Below are positions 15,639 through 63,166 of a stretch of 64,000 nt of DNA, piece by piece. Both the position numbers and the translations under genes were made by a program. The stretch spans positions 64,001-128,000 of the forward strand of contig CAVVUN010000008.1 in the NCBI GenBank assembly GCA_963751455.1, given 5' to 3'. Positions within the stretch are counted from its first letter, which is position 1. Each line of letters opens with the position of its first letter. The notes under the pieces are model-generated. The model saw only the letters and a program-made list of their open reading frames with translations. It was not told where the DNA came from and did not search any database. The stretch is from Nitrospirota bacterium. GTDB taxonomy: Bacteria > Nitrospirota > UBA9217.

Positions 15639-15717
15639 CCGCAGATTACGCTGATTTTAATGATTAAAGCAGGTCTTGGTTTATTTTTTTCATCTGCGTA
15701 TTCTGTGAAATCTGCGG
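15639..15717. repeat. intergenic palindrome, CGCAGA subtype
   Basis: Arms ccgcagattacgctgat... and ...atctgcgtattctgtgaaatctgcgg. Confidence 0.8.
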
Positions 15718-15742
15718 ATAAAGCGTTTCACGATTCTGTTGT

Positions 15743-16231
15743 TCATGCGGCGCCGCATTTTACAACACGATGGGGGTCCTTCAGCTCATGGAGCAGCTGA
15801 GAGATCGTCTTGTTGAGAACGGGATGCACGGCAAGAGGCGCGATCTCGCTCAGGGGTACGAGCACAAACTTTCGCAATGCCAATTGAGCATGTGGTATCA
15901 CAAGATCCGGCCTGCTAATGACCTGATCACCGAACAGCAGGATGTCGAGATCGATCGTACGCGGTCCCCAGCGGACAGCTCGTATACGGCCAAGTTCGTT
16001 TTCAATCGATCGGCACGCCGCCAGCAGGTTCAGCGGTGAGAATTCGGTCTCTATCTCGACCGCCGCATTGACAAATTCTTCCTGCTTTTCATATCCGACC
16101 GGCTCAGTGCAGTAAAAGGATGACTGATTGAGGACGCGTCCTGCGCGGTTCAAAACCTCGATCGCGCGCCTGCAGAAGGCTATCCTGTCGCCCATATTCG
16201 AGCCCAGACCGATGTATGCGGTAGCAGACAT
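15743..16231 (-). CDS. folK: 2-amino-4-hydroxy-6-hydroxymethyldihydropteridine pyrophosphokinase
   Basis: AYIGLGSN, FVNAA, WGPRTIDLDILL, IPH. Start reassigned to 16231. Confidence 0.96.
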   Translation of the reverse strand: MSATAYIGLGSNMGDRIAFCRRAIEVLNRAGRVLNQSSFYCTEPVGYEKQEEFVNAAVEIETEFSPLNLLAACRSIENELGRIRAVRWGPRTIDLDILLFGDQVISRPDLVIPHAQLALRKFVLVPLSEIAPLAVHPVLNKTISQLLHELKDPHRVVKCGAA

Positions 16232-16242
16232 GTTTGTTATTG

Positions 16243-16305
16243 GGACACGGATTAACACGGAAACACCGGATTAAAGCACCGACTTTTCCAATTTTATCCG
16301 TGTCC
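16243..16305. repeat. intergenic palindrome, CACGGA subtype
   Basis: ggacacggattaacacggaaacaccggatt ... atccgtgtcc. Confidence 0.75.
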
Positions 16306-16315
16306 AAAAGGTTTT

Positions 16316-17575
16316 TCAGAATTCAAACTGCATCCCAGCCATCCGCTTTTTGAATTCAGCCAGCACCCGCTGCTCGTCGGCTGCGCCCCTGCACTCGAAG
16401 GTTGCCGAAAAGCGGATATACGCGCCGGCATCATCCCACGGAACGGTGCTGATAAGCTTTTGGGTGATCAGAAACTCCGAAAATTCCTCTGCATTCGCAA
16501 AGGACCTTCCGCCCTTCACTCCAGTTGGCATCTTTACATACAGGTAAAACGATCCCGCGGGGAGCTTCGCATTAAATCCCATTTCGGACAAAACGGCACA
16601 CATCGCCCTGAGCCTTCTCTCATACTTCGCTGAGATAACATCCGTCATCTCGGGATTGTCAAGGGCGTAGACGCCGGCCTTCTGGAGCGCCTTGAACTGA
16701 CCGGAATCGTAATTGTCCTTCACGTTCGCGTATCCGGCGATGACCCGTTCATTGCCGGCAACGAATGCGAGCCGCCAGCCGGTCATATTATACGCCTTGG
16801 AGAGGGAGTGAATCTCGACACCTACATCCTTTGCCCCATCCACGGAAAGGAACGAGAGCGGTTTCGCGCCGTATACGAGGCCGGCATACGCGGCATCGTG
16901 CACGACGATAACGCTGTTCGCTTTCGCAAACGCCACCACCTTTTCAAAAAAGGCAGTAGTCGCGCCTGCCCCTGTCGGGTTATTAGGGTAGTTGATATAG
17001 AGAAGCTTGGCCCTTTTTTTCACGTCCGGCGTAACTGAGTCAAGGTCCGGCAGAAATCCGTTCTGCTCCAGGAGCGGCAGGTTCACGACCTCGCCCCTGT
17101 ACCACCGGGTGTGAGTGCCCATTACAGGATAACCCGGTACGGTCATGAGTGTAACATCGCCGGGGTTGATGAAAATCGCCGGAAACATTGCCAGCACGGG
17201 TTTGCTCCCGATGCCGTGCACCACCTCTGTCTCAGGATTGATATTGCGTACCCCATAGACGCTGCTCAGGTATCGGGCGGCTGCGTCTTTAAATTCCTGG
17301 ATGCCGTTGTCCGCATATCCGCGGTTTTCCGGTTTTTCCGCTTCGGTCTGGAGCGCCTTCACTACGCCGGGGAAGGCCATCTCGTCGGGTTCGCCTACGC
17401 CGAAATCGATAAGCTCAACGCCGGGATGGGCCGCGAGCGCTGCCCGTTTTGCGCGCTTGATCTTTTCGAATTTGTAGATCTTCTGTTCCTTGCCGAACAG
17501 CGCGCCGCCGATTCGCTCGGCAAAAAGGGATTGAATGTAGGTGTCGCTCGGTGTCGCCAACTGCGCATCCTCCAT
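16316..17575 (-). CDS. dapL: LL-diaminopimelate aminotransferase
   Basis: Class I PLP enzyme (NYPNNPTG, DAAY, SLSKAYNMTGWR) within the dapABF-lysA cluster. Confidence 0.88.
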   Translation of the reverse strand: MEDAQLATPSDTYIQSLFAERIGGALFGKEQKIYKFEKIKRAKRAALAAHPGVELIDFGVGEPDEMAFPGVVKALQTEAEKPENRGYADNGIQEFKDAAARYLSSVYGVRNINPETEVVHGIGSKPVLAMFPAIFINPGDVTLMTVPGYPVMGTHTRWYRGEVVNLPLLEQNGFLPDLDSVTPDVKKRAKLLYINYPNNPTGAGATTAFFEKVVAFAKANSVIVVHDAAYAGLVYGAKPLSFLSVDGAKDVGVEIHSLSKAYNMTGWRLAFVAGNERVIAGYANVKDNYDSGQFKALQKAGVYALDNPEMTDVISAKYERRLRAMCAVLSEMGFNAKLPAGSFYLYVKMPTGVKGGRSFANAEEFSEFLITQKLISTVPWDDAGAYIRFSATFECRGAADEQRVLAEFKKRMAGMQFEF

Positions 17576-17621
17576 TGAAAAAAATTATTGGAGCTTTTCA
17601 ACCTGACGTAATAAATGCTTT

Positions 17622-17779
17622 ATCCGCAGATTTCGCAGATAACGCAGATTGTAAAACATAAAACTCCAGCTCATTTTACTATGATACTGATGGCACAGAA
17701 AGAATTATAAACGGTTTTTCCGCGCCTCTTGGTTTAGCCTCGACTTTATTAATCTGTGAAATCTTCGTAATCTGCGGAT
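17622..17779. repeat. intergenic palindrome, CGCAGA subtype, ~100-nt spacer
   Basis: atccgcagatttcgcagataacgcagatt ... aatctgtgaaatcttcgtaatctgcggat. Confidence 0.85.
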
Positions 17780-17783
17780 CATC

Positions 17784-18536
17784 TTACTTCACGGTGTTCT
17801 TCAGGCTTCCTATTCCTTCGATCCGAACCTCGATCTCGTCCCCCGGTTTCATCGGTCCGATTCCCGGCGGCGTGCCGGATATGATGAGGTCGCCCGGCTC
17901 GAGCGTCATGATCTGCGAGATGAAGCTTACAAGATAGGGAATCCTGAAAATAAACTGAGAGGTGCGCGAAGACTGCTTTCGCTCACTGTTCAGATAAGCC
18001 TCGATGAGAAGATCGCCCGGGTCGAGATCGGTCTCTATCCAGGGCCCCACAGGGCAGAAGGTATCGAAAGATTTGGCGCGCGTCCACTGCCCGTCCTTTT
18101 GCTGCAGATCCCGTGCGGTAACATCATTCACGCACGTATAGCCCAGTATGTGGACAGCAGCCTCTTCGGGAGTGATGTTCCTCGTCCGGTCCCTGATTAC
18201 AATTCCGAGTTCTGCTTCATAATCAACCCGCGCACTGCTCGCGGGATAGACGATCGTTTCTGCCGGACCGATGACGCTCGTAGGCGGCTTCAAAAAGATG
18301 ATCGGTTCCTCCGCGACCGGGAAGCCGAGTTCCTCCGCATGGTCACGGTAATTCAGCCCGACCGCTACGATCTTAGACGGATGCGAGGGTGCAAGAAGTT
18401 TCACCCGGGACAGGAAGTGACGGGTCGTGGCTGTTGTGAAAGAGGAAAAGGTGTTTCTTTCAAGTTCCGAAATCTCGTCCCCGTCCAGTATTCCGCATGC
18501 CTGCCTGGCCCCTGCCAAAAACCGAACCAGTTTCAT
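17784..18536 (-). CDS. fumarylacetoacetate hydrolase family protein
   Basis: VGLNYRDH, FLKP, DYEAEL, NDVTARD, AKSFDTFCP, GTPPG. Confidence 0.93.
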   Translation of the reverse strand: MKLVRFLAGARQACGILDGDEISELERNTFSSFTTATTRHFLSRVKLLAPSHPSKIVAVGLNYRDHAEELGFPVAEEPIIFLKPPTSVIGPAETIVYPASSARVDYEAELGIVIRDRTRNITPEEAAVHILGYTCVNDVTARDLQQKDGQWTRAKSFDTFCPVGPWIETDLDPGDLLIEAYLNSERKQSSRTSQFIFRIPYLVSFISQIMTLEPGDLIISGTPPGIGPMKPGDEIEVRIEGIGSLKNTVK

Positions 18537-18600
18537 AGACGACCGCCGTTCTGCCCGAGACGGTTAAGTTCTACCCCTGGAAAACGTAGAAAAGCGTTTG

Positions 18601-18735
18601 TTAGTGTTGCTTCGTCTCAGACCAGTGAAACATGAATCAAGAATCTGTCTCACACGGAGTAAACAGAATACAGTATTAGACTCTTTTCTTTGTGGCTTTG
18701 TGGCTTCGTGTGAAAATTGCTTTTCGGTTCTGGGT
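18601..18735 (-). repeat. composite intergenic palindrome, CACAAA subtype (copy related to 39790-39965 and 45670-45832)
   Basis: Right arm is the reverse complement of the left arm at 39807-39842 (34/36 identity by eye). Confidence 0.75.
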
Positions 18736-18761
18736 TAGAACAGACGCCATCACCGCCAATA

Positions 18762-19529
18762 TTACTTGCCGTCGATCCAGGCGGAAAGCTGGTCGGCTGG
18801 CCGAAACCCGTTCAGAACCGTTCCATCGTCCCGTATAAGGGTCGGTGTGCTGTTGAATCCCAGTTTTTGTACCAGCGCCTTGTTCTTCTCTACCTGCTCG
18901 TTCGAGCACTTGGGCTCAGGCACGGGTTTCCCTTCGAAAGCTTCGTTGGTGAGGTGAACCGATTTTTCACACAGGATCGCCTGGACCTTTTTGTAGGCGT
19001 CTTTGTGCATGGGGAGGGGATACAGCATCAGGTAAAATGCCACATCCTTCCTCGCGGTCAGCACTTTCTTCATCTCTGCGTGGAGGTTTCTGCAATACGG
19101 GCAATCAGGGTCGGTAATGACCACCACTTTCCGTGCGGCGTTTTTCGGACCAAAAACAACAGCATTCTTGAGCGGAATACTGGAAAAATTAACCTTTGCG
19201 GGAGCCGGTGGAGGCATTTTCCCGATCGTATCGACCGGTACCATTTGACCGGCAATCAGATATTTCTTGGAAAAATCGAGAAACAGCGCGCCGTGTTTTC
19301 CGTCCGCGTCAACGTCGATCTGCCAAATGCTTTTGACCGGTGAAAGTTTTATATCGACTATTTTTCCGTTCGGCACCAATTTTTTGACGATGACGTCGGC
19401 TTCCTTCTTTTCCAGTTTATGGCAGTCGGTACAGTTGCCCGCGCACCCGTCTGCGTTTGAAAATGCGCTCGTGGAAAACGGGAAAAGAAATAGAACACCC
19501 AATAGCAGGTTAAGCAGGATCTTTTTCAT
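18762..19529 (-). CDS. DsbC-family thiol:disulfide interchange protein
   Basis: Signal peptide, TDPDCPYC active site, STPT cis-Pro loop; extra N-terminal CTDCH (CxxCH). Confidence 0.88.
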   Translation of the reverse strand: MKKILLNLLLGVLFLFPFSTSAFSNADGCAGNCTDCHKLEKKEADVIVKKLVPNGKIVDIKLSPVKSIWQIDVDADGKHGALFLDFSKKYLIAGQMVPVDTIGKMPPPAPAKVNFSSIPLKNAVVFGPKNAARKVVVITDPDCPYCRNLHAEMKKVLTARKDVAFYLMLYPLPMHKDAYKKVQAILCEKSVHLTNEAFEGKPVPEPKCSNEQVEKNKALVQKLGFNSTPTLIRDDGTVLNGFRPADQLSAWIDGK

Positions 19530-19591
19530 TCAGTAAACTCCTTTAGTTCAAAGTGACAACAAGCCATACAGTGACTGATCTTTACTCAACA

Positions 19592-20401
19592 TTATTTCAA
19601 TCCCAGCACGTCCCGCATATCGTACAATCCGGGCTTCTGTCCGACTACCCATTTTGCGGCCCGCAGCGCTCCGGCGGCAAACGTGTCCCGGCTGTGCGCG
19701 CGATGCGTTATCTCGATGCGCTCGCCTTTGCCCGCGAACATGACCGTATGTTCTCCGACGATGTCTCCTGCCCGGACGGTTTGGATCCCTATTTCTTTTT
19801 TTGACCTTTCGCCGATCATGCCCTTGCGCGTGTACACACCTACTTCGTCAAGATTCCTGTGGACGGCATCCGCCAATACCTGGGCCATCTTGACCGCAGT
19901 ACCGGACGGGGCGTCTTTTTTCATGCGGTGATGCGCTTCGACGATCTCCATATCATAGTCCTCGCCAACGGTCCTGGCCACTTCTTCCAGGATTTTAAAG
20001 CAGAGGTTTACGCCGATGCTCATGTTCGGGGAGAGCACGCAGGGAATCTTCTGGACGAACTTTCTGATTTCATCGAGCTGCGGCCCTGAAAAACCGGTGG
20101 AGCCGATGACAGCCGGTTTGCCGAGCTCCGCGCACGTACGGATGTGATCCAGGCTCGACTCGGGGAAGGTAAAATCAATCAGGACATCGCCGGCTTTCAG
20201 CGCCGCGGCCAGATCGTCCGTTATCATGATAAGGACTCCGCCGCTCGGAAGACCCGCCGGACCGTAGGAATCCTTGCCGACAAGGGCATGGCCTTTTCGT
20301 TCTATCGCTCCTGAAAGACGGATACCGTCCGCCGATGAAAGCAGATTGATGATACGGGACCCCATTCTGCCGGCTGCGCCGGTAACGACCGCTTTGATCA
20401 T
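19592..20401 (-). CDS. dapB: 4-hydroxy-tetrahydrodipicolinate reductase
   Basis: GAAGRMG, EAHHRMKKDAPSGTA, GDIVGEH. Confidence 0.97.
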   Translation of the reverse strand: MIKAVVTGAAGRMGSRIINLLSSADGIRLSGAIERKGHALVGKDSYGPAGLPSGGVLIMITDDLAAALKAGDVLIDFTFPESSLDHIRTCAELGKPAVIGSTGFSGPQLDEIRKFVQKIPCVLSPNMSIGVNLCFKILEEVARTVGEDYDMEIVEAHHRMKKDAPSGTAVKMAQVLADAVHRNLDEVGVYTRKGMIGERSKKEIGIQTVRAGDIVGEHTVMFAGKGERIEITHRAHSRDTFAAGALRAAKWVVGQKPGLYDMRDVLGLK

Positions 20402-20422
20402 AATAACACTCCTATAATCTTT

Positions 20423-20493
20423 GGCCGCAGATTTCGCAGAGTCGCGCAGATTTTTTTCTGCTTGATCCGCTTTTTCCGCGTTAATCCGCGTCC
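20423..20493. repeat. intergenic palindrome, CGCAGA/CGCGGA subtype
   Basis: ggccgcagatttcgcagagtcgcgcagat ... atccgctttttccgcgttaatccgcgtcc. Confidence 0.75.
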
Positions 20494-20508
20494 ACTGGTT
20501 TCTCTTTT

Positions 20509-21381: not shown

Positions 21382-21540
21382 AAAGCCTCCTCGCGGTAAA
21401 CTCCGCAGTTATAAACGTTACTCGTAAATCGGCAACGAAACCCGTATCGGCATTGGTTGCGTTGTTCGGTTTATACCGTTACCACTTGACGCTGAACGAA
21501 ACCGGCATCGTTACCATAACCTCTCGACACGCGATCCGCG

Positions 21541-22353: not shown

Positions 22354-22431
22354 GGCTTCTTTACGAAATATTTCTGTCTTTCTTTTTGGTTTAATTCCGC
22401 AATCCGCATTCGCCAAACCGAGATCTGTAAC

Positions 22432-23691: not shown

Positions 23692-23772
23692 GGGAACGTG
23701 GTCCTGAATATAATTTACAGCACGGCCTAGGGCCGCAACAGATCACAACGTCAAAGGACGCAACACAATTCT

Positions 23773-26349: not shown

Positions 26350-27561
<1,212 letters not shown>

Positions 27562-27582: not shown

Positions 27583-27645
27583 GGACGCGGATTTCACAGA
27601 AGAAAAAACAAATATCTATCTGCTTTTTCAGATTTTATCGTGTCC
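27583..27645. repeat. degenerate intergenic palindrome
   Basis: ggacgcggatttcacaga ... atctgc...atcgtgtcc. Confidence 0.55.
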
Positions 27646-35526: not shown

Positions 35527-35767
35527 TTGCCGCCGAGAACACAGAGAGCACAGAGAAAGGCTGAACCGATATTTAGGACGCAGATCTTCGCAGATTGGCG
35601 CAGATTAAAAGCTTGATTTTTTTGCGTCTACCTTAAATCCGATTTTTCCGGTCTTATCTGCGTCCGAATGTTTCTTTATATTTTCCTCCGTGAACTCTGC
35701 CTGCACCCAATGCCTTCGAGTGCTCAGCGCGAGAATGGAGTGTGCAGGGCGTGTCCTCTGTGGCAAA
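35527..35767. repeat. nested palindromes (CACAGA outer, CGCAGA inner) with mini-element copy 2 (35700-35748) in the outer right arm
   Basis: Outer tttgccgccgagaacacagagagcacagag ... ctccgtgaactctg[insert]gcgtgtcctctgtggcaaa; inner ggacgcagatcttcgcagattggcgcagat ... atctgcgtcc. Confidence 0.8.
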
Positions 35768-37358: not shown

Positions 37359-37790
37359 ATGACCCGCTTTACTGAAAAAAGATTTTTGCCGAAACAGTCA
37401 ATCGGACCCGATGAGAAAGAACGGTTAACAGCGGCTATCGCGGCTCGGCTGTCAACGGAAGAAAATATAGTCTTTGCGTATCTTCACGGGTCTTTTGAAA
37501 CCGACAAATCGTTTCGGGATATAGATGTTGCAATATATGTGACCGCAACGGCAACAATCGATTACGAATCCGATATGTCGCTCAAGCTTTCCGCCGCCAT
37601 AGGACGTGAAGTGGAAGTCAAAATCATCAACAATTCGCCGGTTGCTTTCCAGATGGCGCCCCTTCAACACGGGCGGCTTCTCTTCAGCCGGAATGAGGAT
37701 GCCAGGACCGATTTTTTAGAGTCTGTAGGCAGAAGATATCGTGAGTATGCTCATTTCAGGAATATCTTCATGGAGGCCGGTCAGTGCTGA
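37359..37790 (+). CDS. minimal nucleotidyltransferase (MNT) antitoxin
   Basis: AYLHGSF...RDIDVA; upstream of a HEPN gene. Confidence 0.85.
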   Translation: MTRFTEKRFLPKQSIGPDEKERLTAAIAARLSTEENIVFAYLHGSFETDKSFRDIDVAIYVTATATIDYESDMSLKLSAAIGREVEVKIINNSPVAFQMAPLQHGRLLFSRNEDARTDFLESVGRRYREYAHFRNIFMEAGQC

Positions 37791-38213
37791 ACCATGACAG
37801 AATTGCCAAAAGCACGGCTGATCTTCTTTCCTCTAAGTCCGAGATCTAAAAGATAGTTCAATATCGGCAAAGAGAGCTTCCTGTCGGACAAGAAAAATGC
37901 GCTCGCGGTAAAATATCTCCTGATAGAGGCTGTTGAGGCAATAGCGGACATTTGCCAGCACATACTTGCAAAAATAAAAGGCGTGGTTTGCAGCGGTTAT
38001 GTCGACTGCATCGTTAACGCAGGAGAAAGCGGTATAATCCTTCCCGAGCTGTCGAATAAGCTTCGCAAGCTCGCGGATTTACGTAACAGTCTGATTCACC
38101 GGTACTGGATCATCAATGACGAAGAGCTTTTCACACAGTGCCGCGCCAATATCAATGATCTCAGCGCATTCACTTCTCAAATAGCCGCCTTCATCTCCAG
38201 TCAGAAGAGCTGA
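37784..38213 (+). pseudogene. HEPN/DUF86 (HepT-like) RNase toxin, disrupted
   Basis: GTG 37784 frame hits TAA at 37847-37849. The rest (FNIGKESFL...RNSLIHRY) is in another frame. RxxxxH(xY) motif is intact. Confidence 0.8.
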
Positions 38214-38221
38214 TAAGTGTC

Positions 38222-39736
38222 TCAACGCAGCACTACCAATTCCACCGGATCGGAAACGTCCTTCACTGTGTCGATCTTGCTCAGAATCTTCCGGACCATT
38301 TCCTTGTCGATCTCAGCGATCATGTCCTTGATCAGGCCGTCCTGGTCCGCCAGCTCCCTTCGCGCTCTCATCAACTTCAGGAGATTGTCGGGTATCGCGG
38401 TGTTGGAACCGTATTCAGAGGTAATATCGGCGTACGTGACGCTGTCGCTCCTTTTGGAGCTTATGTTGTGCATGACGATCTGCTCGCCAGATGAGACAGA
38501 GACGACCTTGATCGAGCCGGCCAGCGCGACGTTCAGTTTTGCGGTATGCTGAGCATAGCTGATCGTGACGTCCCGCCAGCACGTTCCCTCGTACGGGCCT
38601 TTCCTGCCCTGCCTGGTGCACGAGTAGGATTCCTGGCCCCCTGTCTTCAAATATTGCACGTTTTCCTTCGGCTGATCGACATGTACCTGGGTGAGTTTGC
38701 CGAAGATCAAATAGTGCACGCCCTTCAGTTGCTTGAACGTCGCATAATCATCAGTGATCCCGCTCATACCCAGCTTCTGTTCCCCCATAACCGCAGCCAA
38801 CTCGTCCCGGTCGATCGTGCGGATGAACTGACTTGCCTGGCCCTGCAATTTCGATTTTATATCGTCGAGAATAAAGTCCCCGACCGACATGCCGGAGACG
38901 TTTCTGTGCGTCGGATTGTCGAATCTCACGAATGCTATCTTCGAAACCGAACATGCCTCGGCTTCGTTCATCTTTGCCGAAATGTCCTTGAATGAGGCGT
39001 TGATCCTGGACGCCGCGCTTAAGTCATTGTACGCGTTTCTGCAAAGGTTCTTCTTGAGAAAGGAAAGACCAAGGGAGTAATAGAGGCTCGTTGCTTTATC
39101 GGCTGCGTCTTTATACCCGCTCATTGTCTCGTTCGAGTGATTATAATTCTCTGCGGCGTCGCGCCAGCTTTTCTGGGTTTGCGCCGCTGCTGCGAGCCGG
39201 TAATACGATTCCGCGATCTTCTCCGTGCAATCCTTGTAGGGATCGTTATGCTTCAAGGCATTTTTATATAGCGTAATCGCGTTAGAATAGTTCGCACCGG
39301 TGAAATACTGCTCTGCGTCTTTATAATATTTGTCCGAAGCGGCTGTTTTCATCTCCGACGCCTTTTGGCCCGCGTTGATGGCGGCGAAATTCAGGCAATT
39401 ATGCCGCGAAAGGCCATCAATAAACGACTGAAGCTCCTGGTATTGCGGCAGCGCCGACTCGAAATCCGAGGTTTTCTCATAACCTGCCGCGATTTCGTAT
39501 TTTTGGTCATACGCCTGCCTCGCGGTCTGACAAAGCTTCAGCTTCGCGTCCTTATGGTCCGCTTCGAGCCGAAGCGCATACAAATACTGCTGAGACGCGG
39601 CGTAGTAATTCTTCATTTCGAGCAGTTCATCCCCATGCTTTACCGCCTGGTACGCCGGTCCACAGCCGAAAACCAGACCGAGAAAAAGACTGGTCATCCC
39701 AAATCTCCAAACTGTTTCGACACGAAACACGCTCAT
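38222..39736 (-). CDS. lipoprotein with TPR-like repeats and CsgG/LpoB-like C-terminal domain
   Basis: Lipobox VFGC; helical repeats; KIAFVRF...IDRDELAAVMGEQKL...GVHYLIFG. Confidence 0.7.
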   Translation of the reverse strand: MSVFRVETVWRFGMTSLFLGLVFGCGPAYQAVKHGDELLEMKNYYAASQQYLYALRLEADHKDAKLKLCQTARQAYDQKYEIAAGYEKTSDFESALPQYQELQSFIDGLSRHNCLNFAAINAGQKASEMKTAASDKYYKDAEQYFTGANYSNAITLYKNALKHNDPYKDCTEKIAESYYRLAAAAQTQKSWRDAAENYNHSNETMSGYKDAADKATSLYYSLGLSFLKKNLCRNAYNDLSAASRINASFKDISAKMNEAEACSVSKIAFVRFDNPTHRNVSGMSVGDFILDDIKSKLQGQASQFIRTIDRDELAAVMGEQKLGMSGITDDYATFKQLKGVHYLIFGKLTQVHVDQPKENVQYLKTGGQESYSCTRQGRKGPYEGTCWRDVTISYAQHTAKLNVALAGSIKVVSVSSGEQIVMHNISSKRSDSVTYADITSEYGSNTAIPDNLLKLMRARRELADQDGLIKDMIAEIDKEMVRKILSKIDTVKDVSDPVELVVLR

Positions 39737-39789
39737 GGTTCCTCCTTAAAGTACTTTACAGACCAATATCTGAAATATTGAGTTTGAGA

Positions 39790-39965
39790 GTCAAAAACCA
39801 AAACCCAATTTTCACACAAAGCCACAGAGCCACAAAGAAAAGCGTTTGATCTTAGAGGTTACGATTCATTTTTTTTATTTTTCTTCGTGGCTTCGTGTCT
39901 CCGTGCGAGACTGGTTTTAAAGGCTTTTGTTTTTGCTTCATCGGTCCGAGGCATTGCCTCGTTAA
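39790..39965 (+). repeat. composite intergenic palindrome with CGAGGC-ATT-GCCTCG tail
   Basis: ttcacacaaagccacagagccacaaag ... cttcgtggcttcgtgtctccgtgcgaga, then a tail shared with 45796-45832. Confidence 0.8.
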
Positions 39966-39974
39966 GGTTTGGCT

Positions 39975-40212
39975 CTTATCAGTATGATGCGGCGCATAGA
40001 AAGTGGACCGGTTGACACCTGCCAGTTCGCATTGTTTGGTCAGCGCCAAGGGGTTTTTGGTATCTACCCAGTGCCGCCGGTCCGCTATAGGCTGATCCCG
40101 GACTTTTTTTTAAGCCAGTCCAGTTCCATCTTCAGCCGTCCGATCTCGGAGTAGAGCCGCTCCGAACTGGCAGCAGGATCTACCGGCGCGGGACCGCGCG
40201 TAGTGTCAAATA
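39975..40212 (-). mobile_element. IS3-family transposase fragment (orfA/orfB junction)
   Basis: RLYSEIGRLKMELDWLKKK (OrfA end), A8G slippery site at 40103-40111, -1 frame ...LALTKQCELAGVNRSTFY (OrfB start). Confidence 0.8.
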
Positions 40213-40376
40213 TGCCCCTTGTTCCATTTGTACCGTTGCAGACATAGTTTGTGGATGTAATCTCTGATGTATCAAGAACTCCGTTATTATTCGTATCAAG
40301 CCCGGAAGTTATCTTGATCCCTCCCGCGGTGCAAGTTGTTCCCGATGGCTCGGTCGCTATCGACGTAAGCGAGGGG
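40213..40376 (-). pseudogene. fragment of a surface-protein repeat domain
   Basis: EPSGTTCTAGGIKITSGLDTNNNGVLDTSEITSTNYVCNG, a Cys-paired repeat seen in large exported proteins; no signal peptide or convincing start. Confidence 0.55.
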
Positions 40377-40405
40377 ACAAAAGTCAACCGCGCTCTTTAC
40401 ATGTT

Positions 40406-41242
40406 CTGCAATTCAGACAGTGTGAAGCGAAGGCAACATGGCCACGAGAGTTTTTCCATAAGTCGGGTTTTGCCAGGCTGTGAGGGTAAATACATTCAGG
40501 ATTTTTAACGTAGAAGGAAACTGTCATCTGATAAGGAGAACAAAGCCTCTTCATCAGAGCTGCTGGCTGTGTCAAGGAGTAACAGGGGTACGTGGGAGAT
40601 ACATCAATGATGCTATGGGGCGCGGGGCTTTGTAAGTTGCTCGGCCAGACTCCGGCGAAGTTTGCGGGTTTTGGCGAGGATCTTCTTGCGGGCCTTTTCG
40701 TTCAACGTGAGCACGAGTTCCTGGTGCTCAAGAGGGCTCAAGTAGGCCACATAGCGTTGGTAGAAAATGAGGATCGCCGTGGTCGTCGGACGGAGCAAAT
40801 CCAACGTCCGCGTGCGGGTTTTGGCATTCAGTTCCTCGCGCCCGATTCGGAGGAGATACCATTGGAGCAGGCTATAGGTGAGCAGAACGAAAACGACCTG
40901 ATTGACGATCGGCTGAAATCCCTTGACGTGAACGCCTCCAGGTCGGAAAAGCATTTCAGTTGGCGATGCCGTTCCTCGATCGTGGTACGCAGGGCGTAGT
41001 CCCGGCGGCCGACGGCAGGATCGTCAAGCCGCGCGGTCGAAACGAGCACCCAATAATCCTCATGCCCGTCGGCATACACCTCCTTGTTGACGACGGCGTC
41101 TAACGGGACCGGGCAGGTTGAGAAGGTCGTCAAAGCATGCACCACGGCGGTTTCGGACCGCAGGAGCGTCTTGTCCGCCGGTCGGGCCGGCGCCGGGTTC
41201 TCGGCCTTCCGTTTCGCCAAGGTGCTACTGTCTGAATTGCAG
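40406..41242 (-). mobile_element. internally deleted IS (IS4-like DDE), 837 bp
   Basis: Perfect 16-bp TIR CTGCAATTCAGACAGT (40406-40421 / 41227-41242); 10-bp direct repeat TTTACATGTT (40396-40405 / 41243-41252); frameshifted transposase C-terminus with YALRTTIEERHRQLK (YREK-type motif). Confidence 0.88.
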
Positions 41243-41379
41243 TTTACATGTTGGGATACAGCAGGGAATAGGTATCTTATCCGATCTGCTTTTCGGCGGT
41301 TCCACCGAGAGTCATGACGATGGGAGCGTAACGGAACGCTTTTCCGACGGCACGTCCATCACGCGTAACGGGTAGTTTA

Positions 41380-41757
41380 TTATTCGGCAAGTTGTTTTTC
41401 AATCTCGTGCAGGACTTTTTTCAAATTCATCGGGCCGGAATCTACAACCTTTTCATCCGAAAGATGGAGATGATGGGGAAAGGTTTTGACTTTCCTGTGA
41501 TGCTCGACATTATCCCAGCGCTGCACGAGCGGCCCCTTTGCGGTTTGCCAATGATAATTGTAGGTAACAATATGGACGCCGGTCCCCTTCAGCTCGACGT
41601 ATTCCGAAAATTCAAGAGTGTCGCCGTTTGAGAGGACGCATTTGACGCGGACATATCCTTCTTCGTCGCTTATTTCCTGTCGTATAATCCTGAAAGACGA
41701 TACAGCGGCGTTGACAAAAAGCTCCTGCAGTATTTCTTCAAGATAGGCACCTATCAT
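41380..41757 (-). CDS. DUF6516/TumE-like putative toxin
   Basis: YNYHW...RWDNVEHH...TFPHHLH motif; start 41757 overlaps the partner stop. Confidence 0.75.
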   Translation of the reverse strand: MIGAYLEEILQELFVNAAVSSFRIIRQEISDEEGYVRVKCVLSNGDTLEFSEYVELKGTGVHIVTYNYHWQTAKGPLVQRWDNVEHHRKVKTFPHHLHLSDEKVVDSGPMNLKKVLHEIEKQLAE

Positions 41758-42074
41758 CGCCTCATGCCTTCCAGCCTGGCTTTTCTTTCCGCAAGGCGCT
41801 GTCGCATGCGGTAAAGAGACGCCCACTCGACGAAATCCATGTCGTCCCCATGCCGCCCCGCTGAGAACTCTTTGATGAAGGCGGTTGACTCCTTTTTATA
41901 GGCGCGTTCAAATTGCTTCAGCTCCTTATCCAGTCTTTTTATCTCTTCTTCATATTTAACCAGCTTGTAATCCATCATTTTGGAAATCGAGCCGGCAACG
42001 AGTTCATCATCGCCGAATTCCCGTATGAATTTTTCCTGCTTCTTTATCTTGATCTTCGATAACGTTTGCGCCAT
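41754..42074 (-). CDS. putative antitoxin partner of DUF6516
   Basis: Coiled-coil, FERAY...F...F..G..GDDMDFVEW pattern; ATGA coupling. Confidence 0.65.
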   Translation of the reverse strand: MAQTLSKIKIKKQEKFIREFGDDELVAGSISKMMDYKLVKYEEEIKRLDKELKQFERAYKKESTAFIKEFSAGRHGDDMDFVEWASLYRMRQRLAERKARLEGMRR

Positions 42075-42492
42075 ACTGCCACCTCCCGGCGGGCTTTTCG
42101 GATTTTAGACTCCCTGTTTTCCAAGCGAATAATAACACAAAATCGGAGCGAAAGGGAAGCGCTCTTTGCCCCCTTCCCCCAAGGCGGATGTGATAGTCAT
42201 GCTCATCGACGACACTGATTTCGTACCGCTGACCCATGCTTCGTATCAAAATTTACCCTGCCGATAACATGCCTTGCATTTGCACGATCCGCTCTTCCCG
42301 TCGTAAGACCACCATTCAGAGGTTTTCTGTCCGCAGAATTCACAGACGCTTTCCGGTCCGGTCCTTGTACCCGTAAGCTTGCCTCGTAGGGCTGCTTGAT
42401 ATGTTCAGCCATGGTGTCCGGTATTTTAATGTCTATTTGCATTGCAACCTCCAAAGCCGCGCCGGATTAACGTTTAGCGGCATAATCTGATA

Positions 42493-42528
42493 TCACAGCC
42501 ATACTTGAACGACTTGAGGATCAGCCAT
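42493..42528 (-). pseudogene. HEPN toxin 5' stub
   Basis: MADPQVVQVWL* overlaps the MNT stop and resembles a HEPN N-terminus; only 11 codons. Confidence 0.45.
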
Positions 42529-42838
42529 AGAGAAGTTTCCCTTCCGCGAAAATATTTTTCAAGAACGGATCGCCCAGGGAAAGCCACTTTTCCACTTCTT
42601 CCGGTTTGTACACGATATAATCAACCGCCGTATGAGTGTCCATTAACCGGTAAAGTTCGCCGATCCGGTCGCTGCCGTAATAAGGCACGTCCTTCTTCAC
42701 AATGAAAAAGTCCAGGTCGTTCACCTCATCTCCGCCCCATGCCGCGGAGCCGAAGAGAATGATCTTCTCAGGCCTGTATTTCTCGATGAGCTGGTCTTTG
42801 ATGCCGTCTATTTCCCGTATGATTTCGCTTCGTGTCAT
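42521..42838 (-). CDS. nucleotidyltransferase (MNT) domain protein
   Basis: PEKIILFGSAAWG...NDLDFFIV; EGKLLYG end. Confidence 0.85.
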   Translation of the reverse strand: MTRSEIIREIDGIKDQLIEKYRPEKIILFGSAAWGGDEVNDLDFFIVKKDVPYYGSDRIGELYRLMDTHTAVDYIVYKPEEVEKWLSLGDPFLKNIFAEGKLLYG

Positions 42839-42941
42839 GCCGAACGCCTTCCCGCGATCAACAACTATCGGACCATGCCGCGCCATCGTTGGTGGTCCTT
42901 TGCGTCGCCGAGGGTGCACACGATTAGAAGCGGCTTAAACG

Positions 42942-43157
42942 CTATTTGCCGATTATCCCCTCTTTTTTCACCCGGCTTATGAGGCTATCGACGGTTTCGC
43001 CCTTATATATATCTCTCCTGAGTTCCGTATAGTCCCCTTCGCCTTTTTCATATTGCAGGAGAAACCTCAATGCCTCGGGAATGCCCAGGCGCTCTTTCAA
43101 TGCATTCCACCCGGCTTTTCTGAGATCAGCGGGGGTCATTTCCAATGTCCGGCTCAT
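42942..43157 (-). CDS. small antitoxin-like protein usually paired with PIN toxins
   Basis: G..AL...LG...ALRFL.QY..G.GDYT..R pattern. Confidence 0.55.
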   Translation of the reverse strand: MSRTLEMTPADLRKAGWNALKERLGIPEALRFLLQYEKGEGDYTELRRDIYKGETVDSLISRVKKEGIIGK

Positions 43158-43167
43158 ACCTTGATTC

Positions 43168-43440
43168 TCACTTTTCGAGCAGACCCTTCAGGTTATCTTC
43201 AAGCTCCCCGTCTATCTCCTGGTCTATTTCCACGCGATGCTCATAATAGAAAGAAAGGGCGTCATGGATCTGGGAAAGCGACAGGTGAGGAAATTCCCGC
43301 GCAAGCTCTTCAGGAGAGAGTCCGAGCTTATAATAGGCAACAAGGTTGGCGACGCGGGTGCGCGTCCCGGCGATAATCGGACGGCCGGCGCTGATCTCCG
43401 GCCGCGATGATATATAGGGATGAAGTATTTCCGTTGACAT
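43168..43440 (-). CDS. DUF433 (VapB45-like) antitoxin
   Basis: PEISAGRPIIAGTR...GLSPEEL...FPHLSLSQIHDALSFY. Confidence 0.88.
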   Translation of the reverse strand: MSTEILHPYISSRPEISAGRPIIAGTRTRVANLVAYYKLGLSPEELAREFPHLSLSQIHDALSFYYEHRVEIDQEIDGELEDNLKGLLEK

Positions 43441-45484: not shown

Positions 45485-45669
45485 TGGTCTGGCAATAAGT
45501 CGCCGGCCCGAAAAACCCGGGCTAAGCCTGAGGGAAGCGAAGGCTGAATCGACCTCAAAGAGAGCAGTTAAACACAGAGATCGCAGAGAAAAATCAAACC
45601 TTATATTAAAAAAACTATCACAGGAAGGTGAACGCTTTTTAAGTACTTACAACCCAACATCTTGAATCA

Positions 45670-45832
45670 AATCTGAAATCAATTTTCTCGCAAAGACGCA
45701 AAGTCCGCAAGGAAAGGCAAATGATTTGAGTTTATAACCCCGATTTAAGGATTTTCTTTGCGCCCTTTGCGCCTTTGCGCGAGACGGTTTTGATTTTTGT
45801 TTGTTTCATCGGTCTGAGGAGTGCCTCGTTAA
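45670..45832 (+). repeat. composite intergenic palindrome, CGCAAA subtype
   Basis: tctcgcaaagacgcaaagtccgcaag ... ctttgcgccctttgcgcctttgcgcgaga plus ttcatcggtctgagg..gcctcgttaa tail. Confidence 0.8.
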
Positions 45833-48867: not shown

Positions 48868-48988
48868 TCCGCAGATTTCGCAGATGTACGCAGATTTTTA
48901 AGAAAGTACCTACTGAGGTCAATCAGAGCAAGTTATAAAAGAATAAATCAGATGTAGTTTTATCTGCGAAATCTGCGCAATCTGCGGA
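48868..48988. repeat. intergenic palindrome, CGCAGA subtype (best-preserved copy)
   Basis: tccgcagatttcgcagatgtacgcagat ... atctgcgaaatctgcgcaatctgcgga. Confidence 0.88.
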
Positions 48989-49016
48989 TAGAAGATGACC
49001 TGTTTCTATCAAACTA

Positions 49017-49979: not shown

Positions 49980-50071
49980 GATGACGTGATCCGGCCGCGC
50001 CCCTGCTATTTATTCGGATATTCTGATTTTCATTCATGATAATGAATTCGCGTTTATCCTGAAAAAAGCAG

Positions 50072-50207
50072 TTGGACACGGATAAAATCTGATCAACACG
50101 GATTTATAGGAAGTTACGAACAGTAATGGATTCACCCAAAAGGCGAGATGGCTTTTTGCTCTATCACATTGTTTTGATCCGCTGTTTCCGTGTTCATCCG
50201 TGTTCAA
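50072..50207. repeat. intergenic palindrome, CACGGA subtype
   Basis: ttggacacggataaaatctgatcaacacggat ... atccgctgtttccgtgttcatccgtgttcaa. Confidence 0.82.
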
Positions 50208-50282
50208 ATGCCGTTTTTAGGTTTATTTTTTTTTGTCCCCATTCTCATATTTGCAAAAAATTTTATTTTGTAATTTTCAAAA

Positions 50283-51946: not shown

Positions 51947-51947
51947 A

Positions 51948-53964: not shown

Positions 53965-53965
53965 G

Positions 53966-56381: not shown

Positions 56382-56455
56382 CTGGCAGGCTGTTGCTTTA
56401 TCCGTTCAGGTTGAGCGTGCGAACCACTCAAAACACTTTTTCAACAGCCTGTTAG
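56382..56455. repeat. short inverted-repeat (MITE-like) element
   Basis: ctggcaggctgttg ... caacagcctgttag. Confidence 0.55.
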
Positions 56456-57321: not shown

Positions 57322-57439
57322 GCTTTATTATACACTATTTTTTGAAACATACTTTGAAAAATAATTTGCATTTATGGTAATATGTTTCGCGATTATATAC
57401 CAGTGTTTCATCGTTTTACTTTCGGGAAAGGAGTAATCA

Positions 57440-59698: not shown

Positions 59699-59784
59699 AT
59701 AAACCCAATACGACCACGAAGGCATGGCCTGTATTCAAGCCAGGCACTGCTTAGACCCTTTGCCGACCATCGCACCGAGAACGC

Positions 59785-59824
59785 CCTGCACTCGCGCTAC
59801 GCACTCGTATGCGCTGGGTGCAAG
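59785..59824 (-). repeat. 40-bp CCTGC...GCAGG mini-element, copy 3
   Basis: Reverse-complement match to 34395-34434. Confidence 0.82.
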
Positions 59825-60038
59825 TCGTGCGACGGGAATCAAGGGGCTCATAATCACCGGCCACAGGCGTAGGCATGAAAAATCGAATGTCAGTGTTTGA
59901 TTCAGCCGTTTTTGGTACTGATTCGCTTAGTGACTCCGTTCTCCGTCGTGAATTGTTTTGTGGCTCCGGCTGCCTCAGTGGTAAATGGTTTTTGGGTCTT
60001 AAATATTCCTCCGTGAACTCTGTGGTTATTTTTTTTTG

Positions 60039-60105
60039 ACAACTGCGGAAACTGCATGTGTGTGTACCTTGGCTTCGCTTTCTCTCTGTGTCTCCGTGGT
60101 GAATT
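60039..60105 (+). repeat. dispersed ~70-bp repeat, also at 63091-63163
   Basis: acaact.c.gaaact...tgtgtacctt...ct.tgtgtctccgtggtgaatt shared. Confidence 0.75.
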
Positions 60106-60155
60106 ATTTGACTGTTTTTTCAGTACACCCTAAGGTATAATTACCAGAGATTACT

Positions 60156-61964
60156 ATGGCGTTTACCGGCGATTTAGAACATCTTCATATAGTAGACATT
60201 ATCCAGTTGGTCCACACAACGCGGAAGTCGGGCATTTTTTCCGTTAAGGGGAGCAAAGGGGAGAGCAGAATTGTTTTCAGCAGCGGATATATTGTCAGTG
60301 CAAATCATCTTAACAGCAGCGTCCGCATAGGGACCGTTCTCGTAAAGACGGGCGCCATAACAATTGACGATCTCAAGCAGGCATTGGACGCCACGAAGGG
60401 TGCCGTTAAGAACCGTAGACCGCTGATGGCAGCTCTCATTGAGATGGGCAAGCTGAAAAGGGACGACGCTCTAAGAGGATTCAAAAAGCTGGTCGAGATA
60501 ACAATCGTTGAGCTGATGAGCTGGACTAAGGGTACCTTTACTTTCGATACCGATATGATGCCTGGCTCTTCCGAAGAAGAGGCTTCTTATGGCGACACGG
60601 AGCAGGATGTGGGAGTTGATGCCCAGATGGTTTTGATGGATGCACTTCGTATCTTTGACGAGCGGGAACGCGACCGCGCGGCCGGAAAAGAGGTTCCGTC
60701 CTTTGAGGCAGTCTACGCCGATGTCCTTCCGGGAGAAGACACCGGTGAAATAAAAGGTAAACGTTCGACAGTTACAGCGGATGATCTGGGGCTTGCCGAT
60801 ATCGATCGCCTTGAGAAGAGAATACCCCGGCCTGTTTCCGAAATGGAAATCTTTAGTCCACTCGAAATCCATCGCCAGAAAATAAAGGAAATACTCGCGG
60901 GTTTTTCTTTCGAAGAGCAGGAGGCATTTGTTTCTTTTTTGAGGAAATTCGTGGATCGCAAGGCTGTGCCCGAAGCTGCGGCGAAGCAGGCGGGCAAAGC
61001 CGTCGTCATTTTCAGCAATGATAAGCTGATCAGGCATACAGTTATGTCCATAGGTAAAGCAGAAGGAATACCCGTATTTGTAACAGACGACGAAAAGGAC
61101 CTCGAAAAGATTGTTTCGCAGTGTCTCTCTACCATGAGAATGCCTATGGTTGTTTTTGACAGTCCCGGGACCACGGAGGGCGGGTTTCCCGAGGAAACAA
61201 TCGTCAGCCTGCGGAAACGGTTAAGGGAAAAGTACTCTGCGGTTCCAGTCTTTCAACTCGCCCCTTCTGAGGAGAGTAATTTCATCCTTCAATCATATAA
61301 TGACGGCGTCAGGGCCGTTCTTCCGAAGCCGTTGAAAGAAGCCCGAAGACAAACGTACGTTCAGGATACCATACAGTTTCTCGATACCTTCAACTCGTAC
61401 ATCAAACGTTTTCAGTCTCGAATCGATGACACCGGCACGCAGGTGAAAAAATTAAAAGACGACATCACAGCGCTTCGCGGGCTCGCCAACCTTTCTGATG
61501 CGCCGCTTGTGATTCTCGCAGCTGTCGCTGAAATGTTCGAGCGTGCTGTTACGTTTCTCGTAAGTCCCTCGGAATTGATCGGCGAAAGGGCCATAGGAGT
61601 GAGTTCCCCAAAAAGCATGGGCCCGACTGCGGCAGATACGCTCAAGATACCGCTATCAAAACCTTCGGTTTTCCGGGATGTGCTCGAAAAAGCGCAGGCT
61701 TATTATGGGGAGAGCAGCGATGAAGCGCTAGGAGAACTCTTTAACAAAATCGGCAAGCCTCTCAGTCAGTCTGTTCTCCTGCTGCCCTTGATAATCGAGC
61801 GAAAGGTCGTGGCAATCGTATACGGCGATTTCGGGAAAGAAGAGGCATCCCCCGTGCTGCTCGATACGCTTGAGATACTTGCTCAGCAGGTCGGCATTGC
61901 GCTTGAATATGAGCTTTTCCGGAGACAGACGGCGAAACGCGGCTCAAAAATCGTAGAAATGTGA
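60156..61964 (+). CDS. DUF4388 domain protein with receiver-like and GAF-like regions
   Basis: FTGDL..L...DIIQL....KSG, RIGTVLV, WTKGTFTF; C-terminal LLLPL...VVAIVYGD. Confidence 0.78.
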   Translation: MAFTGDLEHLHIVDIIQLVHTTRKSGIFSVKGSKGESRIVFSSGYIVSANHLNSSVRIGTVLVKTGAITIDDLKQALDATKGAVKNRRPLMAALIEMGKLKRDDALRGFKKLVEITIVELMSWTKGTFTFDTDMMPGSSEEEASYGDTEQDVGVDAQMVLMDALRIFDERERDRAAGKEVPSFEAVYADVLPGEDTGEIKGKRSTVTADDLGLADIDRLEKRIPRPVSEMEIFSPLEIHRQKIKEILAGFSFEEQEAFVSFLRKFVDRKAVPEAAAKQAGKAVVIFSNDKLIRHTVMSIGKAEGIPVFVTDDEKDLEKIVSQCLSTMRMPMVVFDSPGTTEGGFPEETIVSLRKRLREKYSAVPVFQLAPSEESNFILQSYNDGVRAVLPKPLKEARRQTYVQDTIQFLDTFNSYIKRFQSRIDDTGTQVKKLKDDITALRGLANLSDAPLVILAAVAEMFERAVTFLVSPSELIGERAIGVSSPKSMGPTAADTLKIPLSKPSVFRDVLEKAQAYYGESSDEALGELFNKIGKPLSQSVLLLPLIIERKVVAIVYGDFGKEEASPVLLDTLEILAQQVGIALEYELFRRQTAKRGSKIVEM

Positions 61965-62004
61965 TATGTCTTAAGTTTAAAAAATCCGGAGGTATAAGGG
62001 CGCC

Positions 62005-63072
62005 ATGGACACTGCAATATTTAATCAGATTCTTCAGATTGCCTTCCAGAAAAGGGTCTCGGATATCCATTTCGAGGTCGACAACCCACCGATGTTCCGG
62101 GCACGCGGCCATCTTATCCGCTCCAAGCTCGGGAACTTGACGAAACAGGATACCGAGTTTGTCGCAACCGCGGTCATGGCGCAGCACAACCGGAAGCTGC
62201 CCGAAGACTTAAGGGAATTTGATACTTCCTTTACGCTCGCGAATGTCGGCCGCTTCCGGGTGAGCATCTTCCGGCAGCGCGGCAATCTCGGCATTGTTAT
62301 GCGCGTTATACCTCACCAGATAGGTACGTTCGAGGAGTTGAATCTTCCGCCGGTGCTCGGGAGGATTGCGCAGGCTCCTAACGGCCTTATTCTCGTCACC
62401 GGGCCGACCGGCAACGGCAAATCAACGACGCTCGCTTCCATGATGCGGTTTATCAATGATAACTTCGATTACAATATTATTACGATCGAGGACCCGATCG
62501 AGTTTCTGTTCGCTTCGAACAAAAGCTGTATTATCCAGAGGGAAGTAGGCATCGATACGGAAAGTTTCACCGTTGCTCTACGGTCTGCAATGCGCATGAA
62601 TCCGGACGTCATCATGGTCGGAGAACTGCGCGATCTCGAAACCGTAGACTCCTGCGTGAAGGCCGCCGAGACGGGCCACCTGGTATTGTCCACGCTGCAT
62701 ACCCATAATACGGCTCAATCCATCAACCGTATTGTCGGTTATTTTCCGCCCCAGGCGCATGAAAATATCAGGCAACGGCTGGCGGAAAGCCTTATAGCAA
62801 TTATCTCTCTCCGGCTGGTACGAGGGAAAAAAGACGAAACTATTCTTCCCGTCCTTGAAGTGATGTATGCAACTTCTTCCATTAAGGCGTGTATCAGGGA
62901 CAATCACCTCGATGAGATTGAGCAGTACATCGAAAAGGGACGCGACGAATACGGCATGCAGACAATGGACCAGCATCTCATTGACCTCTGCAAAGCGGAA
63001 CTCTTGACTCTCGAAGAGGCGAAGCGCATCTCTCGCTCGAAAGATCTTGAGCGTAAACTGACCTACAGTTAG
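62005..63072 (+). CDS. PilT/PilU-family retraction ATPase
   Basis: SDIH, GPTGNGKSTT, TIEDPIE, QREVG, PDVIMVGELRD, TGHLVLSTLH, GMQTMDQ. Confidence 0.92.
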   Translation: MDTAIFNQILQIAFQKRVSDIHFEVDNPPMFRARGHLIRSKLGNLTKQDTEFVATAVMAQHNRKLPEDLREFDTSFTLANVGRFRVSIFRQRGNLGIVMRVIPHQIGTFEELNLPPVLGRIAQAPNGLILVTGPTGNGKSTTLASMMRFINDNFDYNIITIEDPIEFLFASNKSCIIQREVGIDTESFTVALRSAMRMNPDVIMVGELRDLETVDSCVKAAETGHLVLSTLHTHNTAQSINRIVGYFPPQAHENIRQRLAESLIAIISLRLVRGKKDETILPVLEVMYATSSIKACIRDNHLDEIEQYIEKGRDEYGMQTMDQHLIDLCKAELLTLEEAKRISRSKDLERKLTYS

Positions 63073-63166
63073 AACACGTGAATAGATCTAACAACTACAG
63101 AAACTCAGCTTATGTGTACCTTAGCCTGCTTTTCTCAGTGACTCCGTGTCTCCGTGGTGAATTTTT

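Follow-up and report, generated by a model that had tools for sequence, protein, structure and literature searches.

Palindromes in the operons of a Nitrospirota genome as putative gene-less ends of a GxxExxY nuclease cassette

Palindromes in the window and across the genome

The window analysed here is a stretch of 64,000 nucleotides from a Nitrospirota bacterium (lineage UBA9217), positions 64,001 to 128,000 of contig CAVVUN010000008.1 in assembly GCA_963751455.1; it forms part of contig C8 of the 5.72-Mb assembly, and the genome is labelled G000. Its operons carry a family of intergenic palindromes, each made of a left arm of three tandem CRCRRA units, a right arm with the same kind of units inverted, and a spacer between them. 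Arms of this kind also enclose genes for GxxExxY proteins, small nucleases of the PD-(D/E)XK type, and we lean towards reading the palindromes as gene-less copies of the ends of an undescribed selfish cassette.

All 11 two-armed copies listed in the original prediction were found in their places, as were half-copies at 59.9-60.1 kb and at 63.1 kb. The family with three-unit arms described there is present, but only two of the 11 window copies (39815 and 48870) have exact triplets in both arms, and the rest have one degenerate arm. Their position in housekeeping operons was confirmed, with copies among dapA/dapB, argG, folK and oppD/oppF-type genes. A gene-less hairpin of the CGCAGAT subtype at 15640..15716, which is single-copy in the genome, lies between folK and a nucleoside-kinase-like gene; a degenerate hairpin of the CACGGAT subtype (16243..16305) occupies the gap from dapL to folK, with an arm extending to the folK start region; and a gene-less CGCAGAT hairpin with a 104-nt spacer (17622..17779) occupies the gap from an FAH-family gene to dapL. 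The gap from a dsbC-like gene to the FAH gene holds a hairpin of the CACrrAG subtype with a degenerate left arm (18650..18713), the flanks of which resemble, by eye, degenerate ends of the C- and D-type shells mentioned below. A CGCAGAT hairpin with a right arm of CGCGGA type is found between dapA and dapB (20423..20493), and a degenerate hairpin between a peptidyl-prolyl isomerase gene and argG (27583..27645). At 35527..35702 two elements are nested, with outer CACAGAG-type arms around an inner GGACGCAGAT-type hairpin (~35576-35665). The C-type shell at 39749..39965 has a CACAAAG-type hairpin core at 39815-39905, and one of its ends is TTAACGAGGC with a subterminal hairpin; a further C-type shell, at 45652..45832 in the convergent gap before lpxC, has a CGCAAAG-type core at 45689-45779. 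A lone two-unit left arm on the plus strand (45573..45590) was absent from the original list. Between two oligopeptide ABC ATPase genes lies a gene-less CGCAGAT hairpin with exact triplets in both arms (48868..48989), and at 50058..50221 a 164-bp miniature inverted-repeat transposable element (MITE) of family F, in which IS1380-like terminal repeats adjoin CACGGAT-type arms and TTTAT is duplicated on both sides. Unpaired right arms of CACrGAG type are found in the gap from parC to a DUF4388 gene (60010..60101), with more degenerate right-arm words near 59.93-59.97 kb, and one unpaired right arm of CACGGAG type in the gap from pilT to yjbQ (63135..63156). When the window was searched with Rfam at the gathering score, no family matched the copies, and just two tRNAs were found.

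The family is genuine and greatly exceeds chance: a genome-wide count gave 413 exact triple-CRCRRA arms, compared to 2 in a fifth-order Markov control, and weight matrices detected 871 arms at 15 bits or more, with a null of about 3 arms at 14 bits and none at 16. Left arms were followed by right arms within 2 kb in 276 pairs, most commonly at a distance of 10-60 nt and mostly with like subtypes on both sides; at short range these left-to-right pairs predominate and right-to-left pairs are scarce, and short two-armed pairs number 258. The arms split into subtypes by word and spacing, including an 8/9-nt G-tail class. Their consensus is a tandem direct array of a word, without an internal palindrome of the repetitive extragenic palindromic (REP) type, and no conserved GTAG/CGTC tag was found in it. 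Inverted doublets are over-represented in extragenic space. By our own gene calls (5049 genes), co-directional gaps hold 671 of the 871 arms, convergent gaps 99, divergent gaps 72 and gene interiors 29, and among gaps of 150-300 nt an arm was held by 151 of 860 co-directional versus 4 of 190 divergent ones, a depletion in divergent gaps.

The arms had also been described as co-varying within a copy, and as possible operon-internal RNA structures. Covariation does exist at the level of the subtype, since outer-unit matches between paired arms numbered 970 versus 773±13 after arm shuffling; mirrored units, however, were no more alike than non-mirrored ones (254 versus 310), and the covariation is therefore not base-pair compensation. 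Arms selected to pair in messenger RNA would show more G-U than A-C mismatches on the transcribed strand. No G-U excess appeared in gene-less pairs (191:177), in core units (102:93) or in 181 filled cassettes (176:216), whereas tRNA acceptor stems (12:0) and terminator-like stems (26:13) used as controls did show one, so that an RNA stem is not supported. The arms appear to act like six repeats of one word, the pattern expected for protein-binding sites on duplex DNA.

GxxExxY genes between the arms

The genome has eight GxxExxY loci, of which five are intact and three broken, and inverted arms are present at all eight, belonging to the CRCRRA family at seven and to a GGAGAAAT-like family at one. 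Open two-unit arms enclose just 2 of the 5049 called genes, both of them GxxExxY, in a count made with a gene caller that misses some AT-rich genes. The original prediction of empty sites of a gene cassette was right in that filled versions exist, but a general cassette system is too wide a description when only these two genes are enclosed. The suggested link between such arms and GxxExxY genes in other genomes was supported. Among 94 loci in relatives, comprising the 5 own loci and 89 of the best matches listed, 83 had an inverted repeat scoring at least 24 (control 2), and 44 had inward-oriented matrix matches on both arms, the wrong orientations giving 2 and 3. From other phyla and viral contigs 84 loci were taken, 6 of which were dropped as short or broken, and an inverted repeat was found at 58 of the 78 scored (control 9); the search of viral sequences yielded 4 loci with the GxxExxY alignment and none with a single protein query. 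Some GxxExxY genes in other phyla are flanked by a whole hairpin on each side. The neighbours are co-oriented with the GxxExxY gene in 87 of 89 called cases upstream and 81 of 89 downstream, and the left arm can overlap the upstream gene and supply its end, for example in larC.

The arrangement hemH-GxxExxY-hemG is present twice in G000 (C12:21596 and C2:30548) with different arms, one copy carrying many frameshifts; fragmentary duplicates of several other genes also occur in this genome, which fits the stated 5.4% contamination or assembly errors. In another genome, G092, single arms stand beside small toxin-antitoxin-type genes in a polysaccharide region (loci L372-L374), which are presumably DUF2442/DUF4160-, HicB- and HEPN-like. 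One left/right pair there, about 640 nt apart, encloses a HicB-like open reading frame (ORF), a possible non-nuclease cargo.

The enclosed protein belongs to PF13366/TIGR04256 (PDDEXK_3) and is about 125 amino acids long. G22, G24, E27, D67, E77, K79 and N108 are invariant (D67, E77 and K79 across 54 sequences), and the predicted catalytic motif is intact; Q91 and Y95 are near-invariant and form what we take to be a RecB/Cas4-like QxxxY motif. A structural model predicted with a mean local confidence (pLDDT) of 95 gave matches at a generic level to Cas4, lambda-type exonucleases, restriction-like proteins and Hjc (best Z 8.3; for Hjc itself Z 6.5, root-mean-square deviation 3.4, 87 aligned residues), with tRNA splicing endonucleases among the weaker ones. 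Being generic for PD-(D/E)XK proteins, these fold matches single out no function, and a sequence search of the PDB found no relative of the nuclease. The ratio of nonsynonymous to synonymous substitution rates (dN/dS) was 0.03-0.14 on 9 unsaturated pairs, which indicates purifying selection; synonymous divergence (pS) of the nuclease compared to a host neighbour was saturated and thus uninformative. GC content of the nuclease gene is 0.43 versus 0.57 for its neighbours. In the literature the family is listed as of function unknown with multiple transfers (PMC3424549).

Each nuclease clade goes with its own arm word, across phyla and not by host. A G-clade query against GTDB genomes of at least 10 phyla gave, at unrelated loci, G-tail words in 74 of 77 cases and T-tail words in none, and a T-clade query against metagenomes gave T-tail words in 70 of 75 and a G-tail word in 1, the two queries having run on different collections with 3 and 5 short loci dropped, respectively. 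This coupling predicts that the dispersed arms of a genome should match its resident clade, and the prediction held in G092 and G142. The former, a single contig with one T-clade gene in exact arms, has 70 T-type arms and 0 G-type arms, and its empty pairs are built from the two arm variants that also flank its gene; the latter has two genes, of which the one included in the tree is of the G-clade, and carries 6 G-type arms and 0 T-type arms. In a tree of the 94 proteins the arm types also cluster (14 changes versus 52.9 when shuffled), largely from orthologous sites. As the 94 loci represent just 49 sites, one of which (larC-nadE) has as many as 13 orthologues, the clustering alone shows descent and was not taken as co-evolution.

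The number of dispersed arms follows the presence of the gene. In a taxonomic family of 37 genomes (f1), the gene is found in 29, which carry 12-276 exact arms with a median of 119, and 7 of the 8 gene-less genomes carry 0-7; arm count correlates with gene count at a rho of 0.69, and congeneric genomes range from 209 arms to 2.

Orthologous gaps were found filled, partly deleted, gene-less or empty, which is the polymorphism that the original prediction had proposed to look for. At larC-nadE, 10 of 30 loci are filled, 2 have gene-less pairs and 18 have neither, some of the latter retaining a trace of the left arm at the end of larC. Of 27 syntenic hemH-hemG loci, 4 are filled and 4 have gene-less pairs of another subtype, which points to separate arrivals; one locus retains a gene remnant of about 100 nt between the arms, and one has collapsed to a gap of 29 nt. 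Among the matches listed from genomes of the same family, the gaps orthologous to those of the window operon are either short or occupied by hairpins of many unrelated word families. Congeners of G092, which are 75-85% alike, were searched for an exact empty site of a free hairpin and none was found; the one clean case in this comparison is a hairpin inside another multi-copy shell. Genes for four-helix-bundle proteins (TIGR02436; loci L128-L147) also lie in operon gaps between inverted tandem arrays, with other words, and gene-less arrays of that type occupy orthologous gaps (L013-L032), as a parallel cassette system.

Mini-transposon shells

The spacers had been described as unique. Of the 258 short pairs, 123 belong to multi-copy clusters, and identity continues past the arms to ends of insertion sequence (IS) type; the window copy at 50072 alone has 54 near-identical full-length copies, all members of family F. 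An IS-type end lies within 90 nt of 144 of the 258 pairs, leaving 114 pairs with no recognised IS end, and a version of this count restricted to five families gave 138 of 258 pairs versus 49 of 2538 arm-free gaps. Family A elements are 167-168 bp long, with a terminal inverted repeat (TIR) of 12 bp and a perfect 8-bp target duplication in 24 of 31. Family F elements measure 164 bp, and 49 of the 54 full copies in the genome have a 5-bp duplication. Families A and F are therefore MITEs, and IS-derived shells are taken to give most of the recent amplification, which is shown for these two families.

The ends of family F are common to four copies of a resident IS1380-like element (119 bits, under the 180-bit cut-off), and those of family E match an IS1182-like element. 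No autonomous IS with family A ends was found in this assembly, and a search for a partner transposase of the C-type shells around the window cores 39815 and 45689 gave none. Elements are nested in one another. G092 has the same arrangement of a shell around a hairpin, with different ends, and in genome G007 a single filled cassette sits within A-type ends; IS-type ends near filled cassettes are otherwise rare (2 of 94).

A family B shell of 280 bp with CTAG on both sides is present in 13 copies with a hairpin core (e.g. G000 C1:292988 and C15:814190-814469). A 69-bp family A MITE at G000 C12:655431-655499 lacks the hairpin core and has the 8-bp duplication, and could be either a deletion product or a pre-insertion form. 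Insertions of family F supply the last codons and the stop (tail AFEHG) of host genes, mnmA (C8:179129-180397) and others.

Interpretation of the arms and remaining features of the window

We consider it somewhat probable that the palindromes are gene-less copies of the ends of an undescribed selfish cassette, the GxxExxY nuclease of which would recognise its own arms and mobilise filled and empty copies alike. This reading is supported by what was observed: enclosure of the gene, the clade-specific word, the agreement between dispersed arms and the resident clade, turnover at orthologous gaps, the intact motif and MITE amplification. The nuclease would read its arm word on double-stranded DNA and cut at the arms, thereby moving the cassette along with its empty copies. 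Each arm has three units at a spacing of about one helical turn, which may serve as binding sites for several subunits, and nicking at the arms could take place on an extruded cruciform, as with the similarly sized Hjc resolvases; host repair would then complete excision and insertion without target duplication. Lacking an evident promoter, the cassettes would ride the host transcript, which might be why they persist in gaps of co-transcribed genes.

Several observations weigh against this reading. Neither an excision product nor RNA was seen, and that the nuclease binds, cuts and mobilises the arms is deduced from sequence. The spread that is demonstrably recent took place via IS-type shells and not via the nuclease. 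Target duplications around 135 free hairpins and 163 filled cassettes were at chance level, where uncertain ends could hide very short ones, so that a footprint of insertion is missing; this genome showed no two filled copies that are near-identical yet lie at different sites, and many filled copies in the 49 sites are old residents rather than recent jumps. No gene remnants were found in 270 spacers of this genome, and decay in place, which is real, is accordingly not established as the main source of gene-less copies. Arms occur in three genomes in which no gene was found, namely G015 (61), G077 (46) and G023 (26). Four-helix-bundle genes are present in 27 of the 29 gene-carrying genomes of f1, nearly the same ones, and the co-occurrence of arms and gene is therefore confounded by general cassette load; outside f1, those genes are common in genomes largely devoid of the arms, and most of their flanks bear other words. 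The coupling of clade and word would also follow if arms and gene merely travelled together, and related genomes are not independent data points in any of the counts.

One rival reading is a homing-type cycle, in which gene-less hairpins would be landing pads spread only by IS-derived mini-transposons and decay, and the nuclease would cut an empty cognate hairpin, be copied in by break repair and never mobilise empty copies. This cycle, which we regard as unlikely, would account for the enclosure, the coupling of clade and word, purifying selection, the low GC of the gene, the patchy filled, decayed and empty states and the missing target duplications; it also fits the 144 pairs that adjoin IS-type ends, and I-Ssp6803I is a precedent, a homing endonuclease of the PD-(D/E)XK type whose 23-bp target is pseudo-palindromic (PMC3384342). 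However, this genome has hundreds of empty cognate hairpins beside its five intact genes, and G092 has 70 arms beside a single one, which argues against homing because efficient cutting would break the chromosome or fill the hairpins. Homing also leaves unexplained why arm counts track gene presence and why 114 pairs have no recognised IS end. Improbable in our view is a device acting at the RNA level, comparable to the intervening sequence (IVS) of 23S rRNA: by pairing within the operon transcript, the arms would cause the insert to be looped out or let RNase III or the nuclease itself cut it out. Co-transcribed gaps and co-orientation would suit such a device, as would the four-helix-bundle genes (S23/IVS-protein family) with the same inverted-array layout in other words, the tRNA splicing endonucleases among the fold matches, the sense strand folding better in 69 of 113 singletons, and the precedent that IVS excision by RNase III is established (PMC4990558). 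The mismatch ratios set against the 12:0 and 26:13 of the controls and the lack of mirrored covariation speak against it, and an RNA stem would have no need of a clade-specific word.

A similarly small probability is given to the arms being host sites, which would bind a host protein such as IHF/HU or serve another host function, with the nuclease gene domesticated or a passive neighbour. A study of Geobacter metallireducens proposes IHF/HU binding for its class 2 sites (PMC2700814); tandem words at near-helical spacing suit protein binding, and filled copies are long resident and under purifying selection. Against this, orthologous gaps switch between unrelated hairpin families or are empty, congeners vary from 209 to 2 arms, and the word follows the nuclease clade across phyla instead of the host. 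We give hardly any weight to the already disfavoured idea that these are ordinary REP doublets forming hairpins (REPINs), moved by the genome's REP-associated tyrosine transposase (RAYT)-like Y1 transposases. Extragenic doublet hairpins do resemble REPINs (PMC3116915) and RAYT-like genes are abundant here (34 matches), yet 0 of 26 RAYT-like matches had an arm nearby (background 881 of 5049 genes), such matches are common in the arm-poor genomes G078 (15) and G084 (11), and none was found in G015 with its 61 arms. RAYT-like genes are thus very improbable as the partner of the arms, which in addition lack the internal palindrome and conserved tag noted above.

The selfish-cassette reading has to be set beside several known systems. 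Class 2 of G. metallireducens comprises 21 pairs, interpreted there as putative IHF/HU sites, which is a prediction (Aklujkar et al. 2009; PMC2700814). It belongs to the same sequence family and equals the CACGGAG subtype here: its intergenic sites consist of TCTCCGTS[Y] three times in tandem, with a partner on the opposite strand at a varying distance. A match to a catalogued repeat family had been named as grounds for rejecting the original prediction, and one subtype does match; the class 2 sites are that one subtype, however, and in the passages and supplements of PMC2700814 covered here they are connected neither with a nuclease gene nor with other subtypes or MITE shells. Class 1 sites in the same study have IS copies at a fixed distance (PMC2700814), and related multicopy families, possibly with more subtypes in the supplements, are reported for G. 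bemidjiensis (PMC2996986). A search of the literature, subscription journals and bioRxiv supplements aside, gave no paper connecting the arms with GxxExxY.

REPIN-RAYT systems share with the present one inverted extragenic doublets and sequence groups tied to a specific, long-resident neighbouring enzyme (PMC3116915, PMC3733652), and the whole hairpins on both sides of some GxxExxY genes in other phyla add to the likeness. The partner here, however, is a PD-(D/E)XK protein of about 125 amino acids and not an HUH Y1 transposase, is multi-copy and lies between the arms, and the arms are tandem direct words instead of palindromes with a tetranucleotide tag. Families A and F, with TIRs, fixed-length duplications and near-identical copies, are bacterial MITEs of the kind that goes with DDE-type IS elements, of which IS1380-like and IS1182-like partners are present here; the difference is that the MITE is a shell, and the hairpin core is also found free without duplication and inside several unrelated shells. 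A free hairpin is like a MITE in having terminal inverted repeats and no gene, and unlike one in having no target-site duplication. The system works like REPINs and MITEs but is not a member of either. The IVS of 23S rRNA with its S23/four-helix-bundle ORF is likewise a small ORF in inverted repeats (PMC4990558), but the elements here lie between protein genes and not in an rRNA gene, have no RNA-stem signature, and their words differ from those of most four-helix-bundle arrays. I-Ssp6803I and Hjc are similar as small PD-(D/E)XK folds with pseudo-palindromic or four-way-junction substrates (PMC3384342), and the apparently intact active site and purifying selection, from only 9 unsaturated pairs, would be in keeping with a homing endonuclease; GxxExxY differs in having no intron or intein, and is known here from its sequence and predicted fold.

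Going beyond the cassette itself, we tentatively suggest, as a possibility that is rather doubtful, a new class of mobile element in which a single PD-(D/E)XK nuclease of about 125 amino acids, with no transposase or recombinase domain, would read triple-word arms and mobilise itself and gene-less hairpins in at least 10 phyla, each subfamily having evolved its own word and the hairpins having been taken up by MITEs of several unrelated IS families. The GxxExxY/PDDEXK_3 family is very widespread and has no assigned function, and the repeats occupy hundreds of operon gaps, sometimes supplying the stop codon of host genes. Natural pairs of enzyme and word make the function directly testable. If the nuclease does mobilise the arms, it would represent a minimal transposition chemistry that belongs to none of the DDE, HUH and recombinase families, as well as a compact module for DNA binding whose specificity has been switched in nature, and the published 'regulator binding sites' of Geobacter would be reinterpreted.

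Two other regions of the window were noted. The palindromes had been reported absent from a defence island; this is true for the helicase/methylase region at 1-15.6 kb, but is weak as evidence, since 120 of 858 inter-arm gaps exceed 15 kb. At 4743-14742, on the minus strand, this defence-like island contains a Vsr endonuclease, a cytosine methyltransferase, an 1832-aa DEAD/DEAH helicase and two ORFs with no family matches, and is presumably DISARM-like. Small toxin-antitoxin-type genes cluster at 37359-43440, among them an MntA-like nucleotidyltransferase, a TumE/TumA-like pair, a Polbeta nucleotidyltransferase and DUF433, and a broken transposase-like stretch lies within this cluster near 40.6-41.2 kb.

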